NCBI GenBank assembly: GCA_035438225.1
Contig: DAORHY010000002.1
Span: 1 to 40,186 of the forward strand
Source: Bacteroidia bacterium
GTDB taxonomy: Bacteria > Bacteroidota > Bacteroidia > AKYH767-A > 2013-40CM-41-45
Direction: 5' to 3'
Length of the DNA: 40,186 nucleotides
Shown: positions 32,377 through 40,186 of the stretch, one piece after another
Position numbering within the stretch: position 1 is the stretch's first letter
Layout: the number at the start of each line of letters is the position of its first letter
Notes under the pieces: generated by a model
What the model was told of the DNA's origin: nothing
The model's input: the letters and a program-made list of their open reading frames with translations, nothing else
Databases searched by the model: none
Position numbers and translations under genes: made by a program

Positions 32377-34863
32377 TTATTTCCCCCCATTCATCATCCC
32401 GCCATTCTGATCGGAATTATCGTCCTTCATGTCATCATTTTTAATGCCTTTCTTTTTCTTCTTCTGACTGAATTCCATTTTGCCAAAGCGGTAATCAAAG
32501 CTGATTCTGGCGCCGAGGAAGAATACTTTGTTATCACTGTCGTATGAAAATCCGTCTCCGGTATAATTGTTTTTAAAATGCATGTACCAGGTAGCAAAAT
32601 TATCAAGGCCGACCGCAATACCTCCTTTTTCATTTTTAAATTCCTTCCTTGCACTGAGATTGTAATACCAAAATGAAGTCGAGCTTCCCTGGACCGTGTA
32701 CTTGGGGCCATTGAAATTACCATACGCCTGTAACCCCCAGGTCTTGGAAAACTTATAGGAGCCGTACAAACTAACATTGTAGTTGATTCCGTCGTTCTGT
32801 AAATTCTGTGTCAGTCCGGTACTTTTCACCTTGTAGTAATAAATATTAAAATTACTACCCATGTAAATTTTCGACTTCCACATAACATTCAATCCGATGC
32901 TGGCTCCCGTGCTGTAATTCTTTCCAATGTTGTCATACGTGGAAACGTATACGTCATTCGTATCCACGAAACGGATGCCCTCAATCGCGTTGTTCGTGAA
33001 CCGGTGGTAGATGGAAGTAGTGATCGAACCGAATTTCCGGAAGGAGTTCCATCCGAATTCAAAAGACTGGCTTTTTTCTGCGCTAAGACCGGGATTCCCG
33101 TAAGAAATATTTTTGATATCGCTTTGATTCACGTAAGGATTCAGATACGTGAGGCCCGGTCGCTGAATGCGCTGGGTGTAACTGAACTTCAGCGTGTATT
33201 TCGTCGGACGCGTGTACGATACAGTTGCCGTAGGGATATAATTTTCGTATTCATTGCTCACCTTCGAAGACGTCTGGTCAAAATCACTGTCGAGTTTCGT
33301 GTGTTCATAGCGCAGTCCGCTTTTAAAACCCCACCGCTTTACAGTTGCGGATAGTTGCATGTAACCTGCATAAATGTGCTGATTGTAGTCAAAGACATTG
33401 CTCCGTGCATCATCCGTCAGAAAAGCATCTGCAACGTAGCTATAGATTTTGTAATTGTAATCACTCTTTACTTTGCGCAAAATATTCTTCCCGCCGGCTT
33501 CCAGGGTGAGTTCTTTGGTCAATGGATGAGTGTAATCCAGCTGCAGGGTAAATTCCCGGTTGCCGCTTTTGTTCAGGCTGTTTTCTTTGTATGGAAACAT
33601 CGGTAAACTGTCAATCATTCTGATGACCTCATATTCTGTATTCCGGTTGCTGTTTGTGAGTTGCCCGGAGAGGGTTAATTCCTGATCCGGTTTTTTAAAG
33701 GATTGTTTCAGATCGAGACTGGCATCGTAATTCAGGCCTTCCGTTTTTGTATCGTAATCGGAAGAAAATAATTTCTGGTAGGAATTTCCATTGAAAGAAA
33801 AATAATTATCTGTTATTCCCTTTGATGTATTCGCAAAATCATTCACACGGAGCGAACCGTTCACGTTGAACCTGCTTGTAAAATCGTAATCAAGAGTCAA
33901 CTGCCCGTAGGGACCAAAGCCGGTGTTTTTATTGTCCCCTTCCTGTCTTAAAGACGAATACGGTGTCGTCCGGGTTGCCAGCAGATCGCCTTTCCCTGTA
34001 TACCCAAAGCCGCCGAAGTTTAAACCGGTTCCCAGGCGGCCTGTGCGGTAACTCACATTTCCAAAAAGATTACTGGACCGTGTACCGGCTCCTGCATTCA
34101 CCATCCCGCTGAAGCCATGAATATTTTTCTTTTTTGTGATAATGTTGATGATTCCGCCCGTCCCTTCCGCATCGTACTTCGCGCTCGGGCTGGTGATCAC
34201 TTCCACTTTTTCGATTTCATCTGCCGGAATCATTTTCATTGCATCCGCCACACTTCCCGCCGTAAGGGAGGAAGGTTTGTTGTTGATCAGCACTTTTACA
34301 TTTTGTGTTCCCTGCAACATGACATTGCCGTCCAGGTCCACCTGTACCATTGGAACTTTTCTCAACACATCCGTTGCATTTCCGCCCTTCGAGGTAATGT
34401 CTTTTTCCGCATTGTAAACAAGTTTGTCAATTTTGGTTTCAATCAGCGACTTCTCTGCTTCGATTGTTGTTTCTTTCAATAAATTTACCGACGGAGCCAA
34501 ATGTACTTTCGAAATATTCAAAGCGCTTTTCTTCTCTGAAATACGCAGGGAGTCGATGTTTTTCGTTCCGTAACCGACGAACGTAATACTCAGGTGATAA
34601 ATTCCATTCCTGAGATTTTTCAATTTAAAATCCCCTTGCCCGTCAGTCAGCACGCCATCGATGGGTTTTTCGCTGCCCTGCTCATACAAGCCGACGCTGG
34701 CAAACTCAACCGGTTTTTTTGTCAGCGAATCGAGCACGGTACCGGTGATTTTTCCTTCAAATATTCGCTGGGGACCTGCACCAGAACCAATGCCCGGGAA
34801 CTGGGCAAAGAGTGAGCCACCGGTAATCACAAAAGCAAGAAGGATGTATAAAGAATGTCGCAT
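32377..34863 (-). CDS. Outer-membrane beta-barrel receptor (CarboxypepD_reg + TonB-dependent plug + OMP_b-brl_3-type barrel)
   Basis: It has a signal peptide and a CarboxypepD_reg-like N-terminus (GKITGTVLDSLTKKPVEFASVGLY...GIYHLSITFVGY). Plug motifs follow (DVLRKVPMVQVD, GGIINIITKK), then a long beta-strand-rich barrel. A Lys/Asp/Gly low-complexity tail follows the terminal ...FGKMEF. Confidence 0.85.
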   Translation of the reverse strand: MRHSLYILLAFVITGGSLFAQFPGIGSGAGPQRIFEGKITGTVLDSLTKKPVEFASVGLYEQGSEKPIDGVLTDGQGDFKLKNLRNGIYHLSITFVGYGTKNIDSLRISEKKSALNISKVHLAPSVNLLKETTIEAEKSLIETKIDKLVYNAEKDITSKGGNATDVLRKVPMVQVDLDGNVMLQGTQNVKVLINNKPSSLTAGSVADAMKMIPADEIEKVEVITSPSAKYDAEGTGGIINIITKKKNIHGFSGMVNAGAGTRSSNLFGNVSYRTGRLGTGLNFGGFGYTGKGDLLATRTTPYSSLRQEGDNKNTGFGPYGQLTLDYDFTSRFNVNGSLRVNDFANTSKGITDNYFSFNGNSYQKLFSSDYDTKTEGLNYDASLDLKQSFKKPDQELTLSGQLTNSNRNTEYEVIRMIDSLPMFPYKENSLNKSGNREFTLQLDYTHPLTKELTLEAGGKNILRKVKSDYNYKIYSYVADAFLTDDARSNVFDYNQHIYAGYMQLSATVKRWGFKSGLRYEHTKLDSDFDQTSSKVSNEYENYIPTATVSYTRPTKYTLKFSYTQRIQRPGLTYLNPYVNQSDIKNISYGNPGLSAEKSQSFEFGWNSFRKFGSITTSIYHRFTNNAIEGIRFVDTNDVYVSTYDNIGKNYSTGASIGLNVMWKSKIYMGSNFNIYYYKVKSTGLTQNLQNDGINYNVSLYGSYKFSKTWGLQAYGNFNGPKYTVQGSSTSFWYYNLSARKEFKNEKGGIAVGLDNFATWYMHFKNNYTGDGFSYDSDNKVFFLGARISFDYRFGKMEFSQKKKKKGIKNDDMKDDNSDQNGGMMNGGK

Positions 34864-35041
34864 AAAATATATTGGGAGAGCCTAAAGGTAAGGAGTGTGA
34901 AGTAAGGGAAAAAATAAATTCGCAGCTGGACAGACGTTCAATTTTCCGGTGTTTTACCGGTATTCTCGTGTTTCACCACCCGCAACCTGTCTCTTCCTGA
35001 AAAATTCTTACCGGTTTTTCAGGACAAGACACCGTTTTATA

Positions 35042-35248
35042 TTAAGGGCACTTCTAATAACCTATTCTGGGTGATGTGCTTTGATGTTTTTTTGCAAGAC
35101 GAGGCCTGAGGAAGGATGATACTGAAGCTAAGTATCAGACTGACGAACAACGAAGTATTGTAAAAAAAGATCAAGCACCGAAAGCTGATGATAGAAATTG
35201 TGACCTAAATTAACAGCACCCGGAAGAGGTTATTAGAGGTGCCCTTAA
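35042..35248. repeat. 207-bp imperfect palindrome with 22-bp terminal inverted repeats (a MITE-like element or a long structured RNA)
   Basis: Positions 35042-35063 (ttaagggcacttctaataacct) pair with 35227-35248 (aggttattagaggtgcccttaa) at 21 Watson-Crick pairs plus one T-G pair. Further inner helices are 35065-35073/35217-35225, 35076-35097/35158-35178 and the apical 35117-35123/35131-35137. Confidence 0.7.
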
Positions 35249-35688
35249 ATGTTTCGCGGATTAATTTGTCTGAAATTCCCCGGTAAAGCAAATGCCCTTC
35301 GGTCAATTCCTGCTGCATCAACAAGGTTGAACTTCTTCATTCTTTGAACGCCGATATACTGTGCCATCTGATCTTTACCTGCCGTAAGACAGGCGTTCAA
35401 AATTGCCTCCGCCTGCAGTTTCTGTTCGTCAGTACCCATCTCTGCAATCTTGTTTACTGCAGTACATCCCTCACGGCAAACTTCCTTGCGGCTTGATAAA
35501 CTATGAAGCCTTAACTCCGCTTTCCCGGGACTTTCACCATTGGGTTTCTTATTTGAAAGAACTATATTTACCAGTCGGGGGACACACAGTACATCTGCAT
35601 TAAGTAGGATTTCGTACTCCGTAGACGGTTTTATGATAGCAGAAAGTTTTTGCTCCGTATAAACAATACTGATAATAATTCCGCCCAT
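35245..35688 (-). CDS. Hypothetical protein, no family recognised (147 aa from ATG 35688; the ORF track extends to TTG 35727)
   Basis: It is a long ORF in an otherwise gene-free region, so it is not a shadow of another gene. It is divergent from mrr with about 56 bp between start codons. Its stop codon (35245-35247) lies inside the right arm of the palindrome. Confidence 0.5.
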   Translation of the reverse strand: MGGIIISIVYTEQKLSAIIKPSTEYEILLNADVLCVPRLVNIVLSNKKPNGESPGKAELRLHSLSSRKEVCREGCTAVNKIAEMGTDEQKLQAEAILNACLTAGKDQMAQYIGVQRMKKFNLVDAAGIDRRAFALPGNFRQINPRNI

Positions 35689-35744
35689 CGCATATCTGCA
35701 TAACGTTATTTGTAACCTTTGAAGCAAACAACAAAGAAAAAAAT

Positions 35745-36656
35745 ATGATTCCGGACTATCAATCCATAATGTTGCCTTTGCTTGAACACATTTCGGACGG
35801 CAAAGAGCATAAAATGCGTAAAATTACTGACGACCTTGCTATTAAGTTTGGTGTTACCGAAGAAGAACTAAAAGAAATGTTACCAAGCGGGGCAGCACCT
35901 GTATTTTACAATAGGACCGCTTGGGCAAAAACATATTTAAAAAAGGCAGGTTTAATCGATAGCCCAAAACAAGGAATTGTAATTATTTCAAAACGGGGGC
36001 TTGAAGTTTTAAGGAAAAAACCAAGTTCAATTAATGTGAAGTTTCTAAAACAATTTTCTGAATTCTTAGAGTTTCAATCCACCAAACGAGACAATGAAAA
36101 TGATTCAGAAACTACCGAAGAACAATCATTTCAAACACCTGAGGAGCTATTAGAAACAGCTTATCAAAAAATTAGAAAATCGCTAGCATCTGAACTCGTA
36201 AACAAAGTGGTTAACTTGTCGCCAGCATTTTTTGAAAAACTAGTTGTCGAACTTTTGGTGAAAATGGGTTACGGCGGTTCAATTAAAGATGCCGGGAAAG
36301 CAATGGGTAAAAGCGGTGACGAAGGAATTGACGGCACAATAAAAGAAGACAAACTTGGGCTTGATATTATTTATATCCAAGCTAAGCGTTGGAAACCAGG
36401 AAATGTTGTTGGCAGACCAGAACTTCAAAAATTTGTTGGTGCATTAGCTGGACAAGGTGCTAAAAAAGGCATTTTCATCACTACGTCAAATTTCACAAAG
36501 GAAGCAATCGAATATACACCACGAAACGAAACAAAAATTGTATTAATTGATGGAGATCAATTAGCTCAACTTATGATTGACTACAATCTTGGTTGCACTC
36601 CACAGCAGACATATGAAGTTAAAAAAATCGACAGCGACTATTTTGGAGAAGAATAA
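35745..36656 (+). CDS. mrr: Mrr-type restriction endonuclease (Mrr_N winged-helix + Mrr_cat nuclease)
   Basis: The N-terminus MIPDYQSIMLPLLEHISDGKEHKMRKITDDLAIKFGVTEEELKEMLPSG...FYNRTAWAKTYLKKAGLI is typical of Mrr_N. The C-terminal PD-(D/E)xK-like core is GDEGIDG...DIIYIQAKRW...GIFITTS. Confidence 0.85.
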   Translation: MIPDYQSIMLPLLEHISDGKEHKMRKITDDLAIKFGVTEEELKEMLPSGAAPVFYNRTAWAKTYLKKAGLIDSPKQGIVIISKRGLEVLRKKPSSINVKFLKQFSEFLEFQSTKRDNENDSETTEEQSFQTPEELLETAYQKIRKSLASELVNKVVNLSPAFFEKLVVELLVKMGYGGSIKDAGKAMGKSGDEGIDGTIKEDKLGLDIIYIQAKRWKPGNVVGRPELQKFVGALAGQGAKKGIFITTSNFTKEAIEYTPRNETKIVLIDGDQLAQLMIDYNLGCTPQQTYEVKKIDSDYFGEE

Positions 36657-37002
36657 ATGAATTTGGAACTGAAAGACTTATAAATTATATCAATTGGCCT
36701 GCTCGGTTGGACAAGGAGAGTTATTCCGTTTATTCTAACTCGAAAAAAAACGCTGTACCTTATCCGCTTCCATTCACTAATTAACTTATTGCACGCTTCG
36801 ATGAATATTCGTCGAAGCATGAGCTACCGCCCATTCGACTCCAAATCCACCCGTTCTCCTGGCCGGAAGAGATTCCCAACCCGATCAGATTTTTTCGTTT
36901 CCGTTCCGTCGTTTACCGGCTGCCGGTTCCTTTGACTTGCATGTGCACGATCTTAATAGTAGCGTTGTATTATTGCCAACTTCTCCTTCAAAAAACAACG
37001 CA

Positions 37003-37052
37003 GACCGGCGGGCATTGGAATGGATGTTGAAGTCCATGTAGGACCGGCGGGC
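37003..37052 (+). repeat. Two copies of the 11-mer GACCGGCGGGC, 39 nt apart, in the sugE leader
   Basis: The copies lie at 37003-37013 and 37042-37052. The nucleotides following the two copies include complementary pentamers (ttgga / tccaa context: attGGAAtgg vs gTTCCAtt). A T6 run follows at 37059-37064, about 72 nt upstream of the sugE ATG. Confidence 0.4.
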
Positions 37053-37135
37053 GTTCCATTTTTTACATAATCTTTTTGATTGCCCCGATTCATTCATCCA
37101 CAAATAATTCCCATCTTCCCGAAAAAATCAGCGCA

Positions 37136-37462
37136 ATGAATTGGACACTCCTCATCATCGCCGGGCTTTTCGAAACCGGTTTTGCTACCTGCCTCGGTAA
37201 AGCAAAAGAAACAAGCGGTGCTGCCGCAGGCTGGTGGTGGAGCGGGTTTTTCCTGTGCCTGGGTGTAAGTATGTTTCTGCTTTACAAAGCAACGCAAACA
37301 TTACCCATCGGAACGGCGTATGCGGTATGGACAGGTATCGGCGCTGTTGGCACCGTATTGGTCGGGATTTTTTTATTCAAAGAACCGGTAGATTTCTGGC
37401 GAATGTTTTTTCTGTCAACATTAATCGCTTCAATTCTCGGATTAAAAATCGTTTCCGCTTAA
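37136..37462 (+). CDS. sugE: SMR-family exporter, SugE/Gdx subtype (guanidinium / quaternary ammonium efflux)
   Basis: The 108-aa protein has 4 TM segments and the conserved membrane Glu in MNWTLLIIAGLFETGFA. The motif LPIGTAYAVWTGIGAVGTVLVGIFLFKEP is typical of SugE. ATG 37136 is preferred over the ORF-track start. Confidence 0.9.
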   Translation: MNWTLLIIAGLFETGFATCLGKAKETSGAAAGWWWSGFFLCLGVSMFLLYKATQTLPIGTAYAVWTGIGAVGTVLVGIFLFKEPVDFWRMFFLSTLIASILGLKIVSA

Positions 37463-37527
37463 TCGTGCCAAGGGGTGGATGAAAAATATACTCCGGTCAG
37501 TGCTTACAAAAAAAAATGCAGGCGCTA

Positions 37528-40186
37528 TCAGTGATTCTGGATCAGCATGCGCTGGAGATAGCTGTCATTCCCATCGCTCAGATGAACAGTGTACACGCCC
37601 GCACTGAGTTCAGGCAGATAAAAAGAGGAACTTGTTTCTGCACTCACGGACGACGCATAGACACAGGCGCCCAATGCATTGAAGATCTGCAAACGATAGC
37701 TGCTGTCATCGTCGCCCGTAAAGGCAAGAGTAAAGGTTCCGTGATTCGGATTCGGATACACGACAAACAATCCTTTTGATTCCGCGGAACGGATGGCGAT
37801 TGTATTGGAATAGGTAAACATTCCGTCAAAATCGGTTTGCTTCAGCCGGTAATAGACGATTCCCGGTTTGGAGGTCCGGTCGAGATAAGCATATGCATGA
37901 GTCTCTGTACTGTTACCGGCGCCCTCCACACGTGCAATTGCTTCGAATTCCTGGGCATCGTAACTTCTTTCCAGCGTGAAATAGGAATTGTTGATTTCAG
38001 AAGCCGTTTTCCAGTCCAGCTGATTTCCTCTCCAAGTATTTTTTCCCGTGAAACTCAGCAATTCAATGGGAAGCGGAGACGTAATTTTAGTGTACCAGAT
38101 CGGAGAGCTCCAGGCTACATGGCCGTCGGCTTGTGTGATTTCCGCGTAATAGTAATAGGTGCCTGTGGTAAACGAATGAGTAAACGTGAGTGAACCTGAA
38201 TTCGTATTCGATGTAAGCACTGTCGGTGTTACATTGCTCCCGGGAACACCGTACCACAATCGAATTTGCGTTGTAGATTCACCATCCGGATCGCTGGTTG
38301 TAACGGTGAACGTTGGATTGACTGTTTGCACCACAATACTTCCCATCGGAAGATTTCCATTTGCAGTGAAGGTCACCTGGAAATTATAATCCTCCGTTGC
38401 ATAAAATCGCATGTTCAGAATGCCATCGAGCATCGCCGCTTTCGTACGTGCCGAAGCAAGGATTACGGTACGTCCCTGGTTGGCTTTCCCCATGGTGGCG
38501 GAATAATGATTGTCCATATCTGCCAATGGCCCCAGGTGATATCCTTTGGCCAGCATGTCTTTGAAATAGGAAACAGTATTCGTGGCAGCGGGATCTGTAT
38601 AACTGGTGTTGGTGGAAAACGCCGGTCCGTTTTTTACAGCAACCCCGACGATTGCGTTATCATACGTTGCATTGTACGGACTGTTTTTAATATTTCCGAA
38701 ATCCGTGGCATTCGGGTGACAAAGTGTTGCGAAGGCATCCGGTGTTGAAGCAACTGTATTAAATACCGTGTTGTAATCGCCTTTGGCTACATAGGTATTG
38801 TAGTTGCCTGCATTCCATCCGAGCAGTTGATTGATCCCGTAAACATTGACATGTCCACCGGTAGAAATAGTTCCCCATTCCATTCCATAGAATGCAACGA
38901 AGCTTGGATTTGAAACCATGTAGGCAGAAGCTTCCGCCAGGCCGCTGGCATATTTTGCAGGAGTCATCACCGGTCCTTCGTTGTGATTGTGATCGGAAAT
39001 CCCCATGTAATCAAAATAAAGTGCGGTGCTTGCGTCTGAATAGCAGCACGTCGGACTGTTTGCGCCATTGCATACATTGTCAACATCGCCATCCGAATAA
39101 TCGGAGTGCGCATGCAGATTGCCAAAATAATTAGTGTAAGAAGGTACAGATACTGTTGTCGCGGACGCTGAAGGCATCGGAGTGCTGAGGTAATTCGAAT
39201 TGCATCCGGTACCATTCAATTCAAAGACTGCAAAATAATATTTGAAACCCGGAAGCAGGCCGGTGACTGTCGTTGAATTCCCTGTTCCCAGATATACGAC
39301 GTATTCACCGGGGGCAGTAGAGGACCCCAATCCGTAGGCTGCATTTGCTGTATAGACAATTCCATCCACAGGAGGCGTAGTGATGGCGCTGATTCCTTTA
39401 CACAGGACAATACAATTCGCTCCGTTTCCCCGTATCCAGTTCAGCTGAACAGAATTGGAAAGCGCAGTGGTGGCAATGAGCGATGAACTTTGAACGGAAG
39501 GTTCCGAAGCCAAAACACATCCGATCGTCGTTGCGGATCCGCCGGCAGGGGCAGCGGTAAGAAAATTTGTAGTACAGCCTGTTCCGTTGAATTCAAAAAT
39601 CCGGTAACTATAAGAAGTATTCGGATTGAGTCCGCTTACCGTGCAGGATGTTCCGCTTCCCATGTACACTACATATTCATTCGCAGCCATCATCGTTCCG
39701 CTGCCGAATGTTGTGCTGGCGATGTACGCACTGCCGTCGGCAGGTGTGGTGGCGACTGCGCCATTCTCATGCATGATGACGATGCATTCGCTGCCATTGC
39801 CGCGTGTCCAGTTCAGCGTCATTGCATTGGCGCCAATGGCCGTCACAGATTGTGCAACTGTCTGCGTTGTGGGTTCCGGATTGATTGTACAGGCATTGGG
39901 GATATAAATATTATCGAAAAGGCCGAAGTCTGAACCGCCGATAGAATGATTCCATAAACAGCCAATGAACATCAGATCGGCACCCGTATACGTGCCGTCC
40001 GTTCCTGTCGTTGGGGCGCCCCAGGTTACAAGATTGGGATCAATGAATGGACCTGCTGAGGTGTTGTTTGTAACGTACAAGCTCCAGGAATTACCAACCG
40101 GATTGTAGGTCATCTTGATCGCGTGGTATTCATTTGCATAATCGGTTGGTGGTGCAATGATCTGAGTGATGTTTGCAACGGGAGAA
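37528..40186 (-). CDS. T9SS-secreted multidomain protein with two FN3-like modules and a PHP-family metal-dependent phosphoesterase domain (N-terminus beyond the window)
   Basis: The frame stays open upstream of M40113 to the window edge. There are two about 120-aa repeats (LNWTRGNGSECIVIM... and LNWIRGNGANCIVLC...). PHP motifs are FGNLHAHSDYSDGD and GISDHNH. The module IELLSFTGK...YYRLKQTDFDG follows. The C-terminal FVVYPNPNHGTFTLAF...GVYTVHLSDG...LIQNH is a T9SS sorting domain. Confidence 0.8.
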   Translation of the reverse strand, partial: SPVANITQIIAPPTDYANEYHAIKMTYNPVGNSWSLYVTNNTSAGPFIDPNLVTWGAPTTGTDGTYTGADLMFIGCLWNHSIGGSDFGLFDNIYIPNACTINPEPTTQTVAQSVTAIGANAMTLNWTRGNGSECIVIMHENGAVATTPADGSAYIASTTFGSGTMMAANEYVVYMGSGTSCTVSGLNPNTSYSYRIFEFNGTGCTTNFLTAAPAGGSATTIGCVLASEPSVQSSSLIATTALSNSVQLNWIRGNGANCIVLCKGISAITTPPVDGIVYTANAAYGLGSSTAPGEYVVYLGTGNSTTVTGLLPGFKYYFAVFELNGTGCNSNYLSTPMPSASATTVSVPSYTNYFGNLHAHSDYSDGDVDNVCNGANSPTCCYSDASTALYFDYMGISDHNHNEGPVMTPAKYASGLAEASAYMVSNPSFVAFYGMEWGTISTGGHVNVYGINQLLGWNAGNYNTYVAKGDYNTVFNTVASTPDAFATLCHPNATDFGNIKNSPYNATYDNAIVGVAVKNGPAFSTNTSYTDPAATNTVSYFKDMLAKGYHLGPLADMDNHYSATMGKANQGRTVILASARTKAAMLDGILNMRFYATEDYNFQVTFTANGNLPMGSIVVQTVNPTFTVTTSDPDGESTTQIRLWYGVPGSNVTPTVLTSNTNSGSLTFTHSFTTGTYYYYAEITQADGHVAWSSPIWYTKITSPLPIELLSFTGKNTWRGNQLDWKTASEINNSYFTLERSYDAQEFEAIARVEGAGNSTETHAYAYLDRTSKPGIVYYRLKQTDFDGMFTYSNTIAIRSAESKGLFVVYPNPNHGTFTLAFTGDDDSSYRLQIFNALGACVYASSVSAETSSSFYLPELSAGVYTVHLSDGNDSYLQRMLIQNH

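Follow-up and report, generated by a model that had tools for sequence, protein, structure and literature searches.

The window analyzed here is a 40,186-nt stretch of contig DAORHY010000002.1 (assembly GCA_035438225.1), assigned to a Bacteroidia bacterium, and our attention centered on a block in which a palindrome, a 147-codon open reading frame (ORF) and the nuclease gene mrr lie side by side. A first-pass annotation had interpreted these neighbors as a possible defence module or toxin/immunity-like arrangement. Our analysis led to a different reading, which we consider very probable: the block would combine a solitary, acquired mrr gene with the defunct 5' portion of a group II intron and a miniature inverted-repeat transposable element (MITE) of the IS5 family—and the 147-codon ORF would be spurious. 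As we picture it, the block would be a small variable slot in the chromosome of an activated-sludge member of the Bacteroidota, with a single working gene and two remnants of mobile elements. The main value of this result lies in a correction, i.e., that the apparent orphan partner of a defence nuclease appears to be a frame across a ribozyme relic and that the "structured palindrome" appears to be a MITE—both being common traps in metagenome-derived protein catalogues.

A 147-codon reading frame over a putative group II intron relic

The 147-codon, ATG-initiated ORF (35245–35688, minus strand) is present as first described and starts 56 bp from mrr in a head-to-head orientation. What had been called an unrecognizable gene, however, coincides with a fragment of a group II intron (35270–35587, minus strand; ~320 nt, mostly domain I), identified through the Rfam family RF02001 and through homology to other introns. 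RF02001 (group II intron D1-D4-3) aligned on the minus strand from 35480 to 35288 over its full model (positions 1–170), with 48.9 bits against a gathering threshold of 32 and an E-value of ~1e-8; the match exceeded the gathering threshold in three separate scans and was the sole above-threshold Rfam match in the 40 kb. Moreover, from position 35588 downwards the relic shares 74% identity with the 5' ends of introns encoding a reverse transcriptase (RT) in loci L060/L061, and it also aligns to the ~1.84-kb, PGAP-annotated ltrA intron on the Chondrinema litorale plasmid NZ_CP111070 (L079). In L060/L061 and L079, RVT_1/ltrA follows directly after the 5' RNA, and the Chondrinema record lists no coding sequence over the RNA region equivalent to the 147-codon ORF.

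The likeness to the Chondrinema-type intron with its ltrA RT comprises domain I in sequence and structure (RF02001), the aligned 5' end and conserved blocks such as GUGAAAGUCCC and ACUGACGAACAG. The window relic differs in the fifth base of the 5' motif, which is changed, and in lacking the RF01998 segment, the RT/maturase ORF and domains V–VI. The Rfam scan did not find RF01998 in the relic region, no RT ORF exists between 34864 and 35745, and RF00029 (domains V–VI) had no match in 34850–35800 at E-values up to 10, whereas the same scan found it in L079 and in a further intron-bearing contig, L078. A continuation of the intron past the MITE was likewise not detected: the next 178 nt have no similarity to L060/L061, contigs that themselves lack the intron 3' end. 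The relic would retain ~18% of a ~1.84-kb element and is predicted to be catalytically inactive: since the RT and domains V–VI are lost, it should be able neither to splice nor to move.

An alternative is that the segment still works as RNA, either as an ORF-less intron in which the palindrome serves as an expanded domain IV or as one half of a trans-splicing intron. ORF-less relatives do exist (the 694-nt unit in L078, described below) and the intron has kept its 5' end here, yet the missing RF01998 and domain V–VI matches, the 178 nt past the MITE that do not resemble L060/L061 (with the reservation just given on these contigs), the independent copies of the palindrome elsewhere and the lack of an interrupted host gene at the flanks make this alternative extremely unlikely.

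The ORF itself begins in the spacer between the intron and mrr and crosses the intron RNA sequence, which makes up its codons 35–147, to be closed by a TAA that is part of the terminal TTAA of the MITE. Searches of Pfam, NCBIfam and PADLOC returned no family for it. A word-indexed search of 5.8 billion proteins found the ORF product itself only, and an exhaustive HMMER search of 1.84 billion representatives yielded three weak matches (61, 78 and 170 aa). Both matches for which contigs were fetched (170 aa and 78 aa) sit on intron domain I RNA: the 170-aa match lies on contigs with RF02001 at 111 bits and RF01998 after it, where the ORF next to the match, 12 nt further on, encodes an RT, and the 78-aa match lies on the ORF-less group II intron of L078. 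Additionally, when the ORF is compared with three introns, its mismatches fall about equally on all codon positions (26/23/31, 31/36/40 and 29/27/32), which fits constraint of an RNA or neutral kind rather than a coding one. The GC content at third codon positions (GC3) is 0.39, against ~0.49 in host genes. We judge the ORF, from these sequence comparisons, to be a chance reading frame and an annotation artefact over the intron relic, and we infer that it is not expressed as a protein. Five deposited contigs already carry the spurious 147-aa protein as a called gene.

A different view would make the ORF a very young de novo gene, assembled from the spacer, intron domain I and the stop codon of the MITE, reading divergently from the mrr promoter region and modulating Mrr, e.g., by providing immunity or countering its toxicity; we give it next to no credence. 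In a weaker version of this idea, the intron relic and the MITE together could have taken on a regulatory role as the 5' region of mrr or of the TonB-dependent receptor gene.

Further observations concern the intron fragment, its relatives and the ORF. The window relic carries a private 20-nt insertion (CCTGTCTTACGGCAGGTAAA, 35392–35411) relative to three related introns, located in a variable loop of the RF02001 region. Contig L078 (ENA ERZ28668866; 749 nt) has an exact 55-nt terminal overlap that leaves a 694-nt unit, which amounts to a complete group II intron without an ORF (RF02001 at 114 bits, RF01998 and RF00029). The 3' end of the intron in L078 abuts its own 5' GUGCG, indicating a circle or a tandem array; its coverage is only 1.7x. 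A sub-threshold match of the ORF product to TraM was rejected as chance.

The palindrome as a putative IS5-family MITE

The palindromic element noted by the first-pass annotation is present (35042–35248, 207 bp) but is not supported as a component of a module, since its copies lie in unrelated contexts. Its terminal inverted repeats (TIRs) occupy 35042–35077 and 35213–35248, with 36 nt each, 89% complementarity and TTAA at each end; its predicted fold reaches -94 kcal/mol (z = -10.4) and is very stable on both strands. Apart from one 45-codon ORF, the element has no coding content of its own. The terminal 21-mer TTAAGGGCACYTCTAATAACC occurs in the window only at the two arms, and it was found in 54 loci from at least seven phyla of species-representative genomes, often with several loci per genome and with hosts that include Campylobacterota, Spirochaetota, Bacteroidota, Nitrospirota, Bacillota, Burkholderiales and a deltaproteobacterium. 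Most of these loci are 35–270-bp elements that share the same inverted termini and have unrelated interiors, with conservation restricted to the terminal 20–36 nt. Copies of the narrower subfamily, 83–93% identical to the window element, occur at three other sites (L032 and L080–L083; a metagenome-assembled genome of a sludge Bacteroidetes and JGI metagenome contigs), where the similarity ends exactly at the TIRs and the flanks are unrelated. TTAA is present at both ends of the window element and of most other copies, with TAAA, TTTA or TCAA at some, although the search pattern used for the copies itself demanded TTAA on one side. Four Logan contigs of the window locus break 29 nt inside the element, as is to be expected of a repeat.

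The assignment to IS5 derives from transposase-encoding elements with the same termini. In a Nitrospira contig (L026), the same TIRs bound a 1.3-kb element encoding a transposase with DUF772 and DDE_Tnp_1 domains, and on plasmid pAFAEC of Aliarcobacter faecis (L085) an annotated IS5-family transposase is flanked by ATGGG(T/A)ACCTCTAAAAAC, a member of the same repeat family. The TIR family GGG(C/T/A)ACCTCTAA(A/T)AAC is common to these insertion sequences (ISs), their MITEs and the window element, which, like other IS5-family MITEs, is short, non-coding and strongly palindromic, with dispersed copies and a similarity limited to the element. It differs from the parent IS in having no transposase and an interior unrelated to that of the parent. 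Judged by its termini and by its dispersal over unrelated contexts, the palindrome is best classified as an IS5-family MITE, i.e., a non-autonomous derivative of such an IS.

One could instead regard the palindrome as a cis-regulatory structured RNA or a terminator serving its neighbors, rather than as a transposon relic. Its very stable fold on both strands and its position 179 bp upstream of the TonB-dependent receptor gene would fit such a role. No Rfam family matched the palindrome with a meaningful score, though, and neither a terminator call nor a T-run was obtained; in addition, the copies are spread across unrelated contexts and phyla with only the termini conserved, and the same termini bound IS5-family transposase genes. 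Taken together, we regard a primary regulatory role as highly improbable, while an inserted MITE that exerts a secondary regulatory effect is possible.

The terminal repeat is of interest in its own right. In loci L006–L059, TTAAGGGCACYTCTAATAACC is conserved almost base for base over at least seven phyla, and because the interiors between these repeats are unrelated, this pattern suggests that one widespread IS5 clade seeded many independent MITE families. The terminal repeat of this clade would represent a repeated source of MITEs. We also considered TTAAGGGCACYTCTAATAACC as part of the intron, an option that was rejected on the grounds of 15 TIR-bearing loci without an intron match. In L006 (3926–5417), a RAYT-like gene with Y1_Tnp and DnaA_C-like domains lies between two copies of the repeat terminus, accompanied by a ~250-bp duplication of the 3' end of the upstream gene; the arrangement is nested or rearranged. 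A RAYT/Y1 transposase was not adopted as the parent of the MITE: the L006 arrangement is a nested duplication, whereas the IS5-type elements are cleanly bounded by TIRs in two genomes.

A solitary, EcoKMrr-type mrr gene

The gene mrr (35745–36656, plus strand) encodes a full-length protein of 303 aa with both Pfam domains expected of the family, as initially proposed: Mrr_N, a winged helix (PF14338; residues 5–90, nt 35757–36014; E = 3e-31, above the cut-off), and Mrr_cat, a PD-(D/E)XK variant (PF04471; residues 157–277, nt 36213–36575; E = 4e-36). The PADLOC model mREase_IV matched the protein over its full length (1.9e-87). A PDB sequence search with the window Mrr gave no match. The protein aligns colinearly with E. 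coli EcoKMrr (36% identity, E = 9e-55), its Mrr_N region pairing with the EcoKMrr N-terminus, and the catalytic motif is kept, with GDEGIDG...IYIQAKRW in the window protein and GDGGIDG...VYVQAKRW in EcoKMrr. In EcoKMrr, Mrr-N is presumed to bind DNA, Mrr-cat contains the motif (D/E)..(D/E/Q)xK, and activity depends on N6-methyladenine (m6A) or 5-methylcytosine (m5C) (PMC3874153).

The two proteins have nearly the same length (304 aa in EcoKMrr, encoded by E. coli K-12 mrr, b4351), the same pair of domains and the common motif GDxGIDG...(V/I)QAKRW, and both are encoded by a single gene without a cognate methyltransferase. Identity amounts to 36% only, however, and cleavage of modified DNA by the window Mrr is putative. 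The two also differ in their genomic setting: in E. coli, mrr belongs to the immigration-control region and has hsdRMS and mcrBC beside it, whereas the window mrr stands alone between the TonB-dependent receptor gene and sugE, with no methyltransferase domain among window ORFs of at least 200 aa. All things considered, mrr is predicted to encode an ordinary, solitary, full-length type IV (modification-dependent) restriction enzyme of the EcoKMrr type. By analogy with EcoKMrr, the winged-helix N-terminus would sense methylated DNA (m6A and/or m5C) and the PD-(D/E)XK-variant C-terminus would then cut it; such an enzyme should need neither a cognate methyltransferase nor a partner protein. The label "divergent" does not apply to this protein, which belongs to a very tightly conserved clade: all 120 homologues among the matches listed are 87–94% identical to it. 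Purifying selection appears strong, with 91–94% identity at the protein level against 83–85% at the nucleotide level.

Probable acquisition of mrr in a variable chromosomal slot

At ~45% GC, with type IX secretion system (T9SS) sorting tails on several genes, a gene for PolA and a TonB-dependent receptor gene, the window has the character of a Bacteroidota chromosome. Against this background, mrr is distinctive in composition. Its GC content is 36.6%, compared with 45.3% for the window and 44–49% for the flanking genes, and it is the lowest-GC 912-nt stretch of the 40 kb. GC3 of mrr is 0.276 as opposed to 0.489 ± 0.033 (minimum 0.404) in 19 other long ORFs (z = -6.4). The GC contrast noted at first sight is therefore significant on proper computation, but its size had been overstated, as the flank has 44–49% GC and not ~58%; the DNA 3' of mrr (36657–37135), described as AT-rich, has 43.8% GC. 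Close Mrr homologues occur in contigs of 33–35% GC, where their GC3 is near 0.25 and matches that of their own hosts.

Comparison with relatives whose receptor protein is 75–85% identical to that of the window adds a positional argument. These relatives keep synteny over PolA and the receptor gene, but the slot that extends from the receptor gene to a gene with an fn3 domain and a T9SS tail (34864–37527) differs in content. In the window, the MITE, the intron relic, mrr and sugE occupy it; in L075/L076, which are syntenic on both sides of the slot (in L075 as far as the fn3/T9SS gene on the far side), the cargo consists of DinB_2 and DUF3089, in L074 it is DUF1361, and in L073 the slot is filled with unrelated DNA. 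Given this different cargo in the relatives, the slot is variable in the lineage of the window, and mrr and sugE are not ancestral there.

Because of the GC3 deficit (about six standard deviations under host genes), the lowest GC in the window, the homologues at home in 33–35% GC contigs and the syntenic relatives that carry other genes in place of mrr, we consider horizontal acquisition of mrr, as suggested by the first-pass annotation, to be supported. The donor would be a lower-GC member of the Bacteroidota. Alternatively, mrr could be an old vertical resident whose low GC reflects a Lys/Glu/Ile-rich protein. Strong purifying selection and the lack of an integrase or tRNA at the flanks would agree with long residence, yet GC3 is nearly free of amino-acid constraint and shows the deficit nonetheless, the nearest syntenic relatives lack mrr in the slot, and near-identical proteins are found in many unrelated neighborhoods. 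We therefore deem vertical residence improbable.

The statement that the islet has no methyltransferase or mobility gene holds for genes, in that the search of window ORFs of at least 200 aa turned up no methyltransferase, integrase or transposase. It is wrong for DNA insofar as nothing mobile was thought to mark the borders, with the putative MITE and intron relic directly beside mrr. The relic, i.e., the first ~320 nt (domain I) of the intron, would lie immediately upstream of mrr on the opposite strand, and the MITE at its broken end may either have inserted there or be the trace of a rearrangement in which the remainder of the intron was lost. The case illustrates how small variable slots may gather single defence genes together with the scars of mobile elements.

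The neighborhoods of mrr and the module reading

We examined 11 loci encoding an Mrr that is 91–94% identical to the window protein, which represent four to five distinct neighborhoods. DNA similarity to these loci (83–85%) is confined to 35735–36656, that is, the mrr ORF plus 10 nt. The upstream neighbor varies between DinB, a protein kinase and a Y1 transposase, and the downstream neighbors comprise a NOV_C-like protein with a small HNH protein, a pair of 300-aa and 139-aa proteins, a type ISP enzyme or a SIR2-TPR protein. The 147-aa ORF, the intron and the MITE/palindrome were found in none of the 11, which speaks against the "fixed head-to-head partnership" claimed for them; nor was any homologue of the ORF found beside Mrr-like genes elsewhere, an outcome that the first-pass annotation had itself named as refuting its view.

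These observations bear on the idea that the ORF encodes a small protein acting with Mrr as a defence or toxin-immunity pair, with the palindrome as a third component. The head-to-head layout with 56 bp between the starts could be cited in its favor, as could the gene calls made for the ORF, which give the same product on each of the five contigs of the locus. All five contigs, however, represent the same organism and locus; homologues of the protein are absent from libraries of 5.8 and 1.8 billion sequences, save for ORFs on intron RNA; its substitutions are not biased by codon position; no defence family matches the ORF; it never neighbors the 91–94% identical Mrr homologues (11 loci); and the palindrome behaves as a dispersed MITE. 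A two- or three-part module is not supported by these sequence data, and we rate its existence as exceedingly improbable.

Several points weigh against our own reading of a solitary mrr gene beside mobile-element debris. The in-register 5' end of the relic reads GUGUC (35585), in comparison with GUGCG in L060, GUGUG in L079 and the canonical GUGYG; a GUGUG is found at 35587, 2 nt upstream of the in-register start. Intron homology fades near 35270, ~22 nt short of the MITE, and the MITE may thus not be the direct cause of the truncation. In the MITE, TTAA may be part of the TIR or a target duplication, and the flanks of the L026 IS differ from each other (TTAA and TCAA). The first 34 codons of the ORF, which lie in the spacer outside the intron, match nothing, and translation of the ORF could, formally, still take place. 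Finally, the exact locus is confined to contigs of one organism, among which there is no pre-insertion allele: five metagenome contigs carry it in identical form, and activated-sludge data are the source of at least two.

A conserved HNH nuclease downstream of Mrr elsewhere

In loci L062–L068, a conserved HNH nuclease of 103–120 aa is repeatedly encoded after Mrr (e.g., L062 6923–7234, L063 6944–7747 and L064 6944–7798), the Mrr proteins of these loci being 92–94% identical to that of the window. The HNH nuclease has weak PtuB-like PADLOC matches, most loci encode a 162-aa NOV_C-like protein between Mrr and HNH, and the loci adjoin a type ISP restriction enzyme or a SIR2-TPR protein. Absent from the window, the HNH nuclease has a stronger claim than the 147-aa ORF to being a recurrent partner of Mrr.

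Spacer, flanking genes and minor features of the slot

The TonB-dependent receptor gene (32377–34863, minus strand) and sugE (ATG at 37136, end at 37462; plus strand) flank the described features. No remnants of the genes adjacent in relatives (DinB, DUF3089, DUF1361, HNH, NOV_C-like and others) were found in 34800–37600. Across L073–L077, the cargo of the slot differs with each relative (DinB_2 and DUF3089, DUF1361, two-component genes), and the slot acts like a small integration hot spot without a recognizable recombinase.

The spacer between the 5' end of the intron and the start of mrr (35588–35744; 157 bp, 34% GC) shares only its last 10 nt (35735–35744) with other mrr loci and presumably holds the mrr promoter. 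Promoter and terminator scans gave counts no better than those of shuffled sequence. The isolated hairpin reported downstream of mrr is present at 36792–36821, 135 nt after the mrr stop codon, as an inverted repeat with 15-nt arms and 87% complementarity. A terminator scan of this hairpin found nothing and no T-run follows it on either strand; it does not qualify as a canonical intrinsic terminator. For the sequence upstream of sugE, Rfam returned neither a guanidine riboswitch nor any other family, and the fold of 36960–37140 is no better than that of shuffled sequence (z = +0.5).

Two minor repeats complete the picture of the slot. One is a 17-bp hairpin (34988–35031; 88% complementarity and a loop of 10 nt) immediately beyond the MITE, in the region upstream of the TonB-dependent receptor gene. 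The other is a direct repeat, GACCGGCGGGC(A/G)TT, which occurs twice at 37003–37055, with the copies 39 nt apart and ~80–130 nt upstream of sugE.

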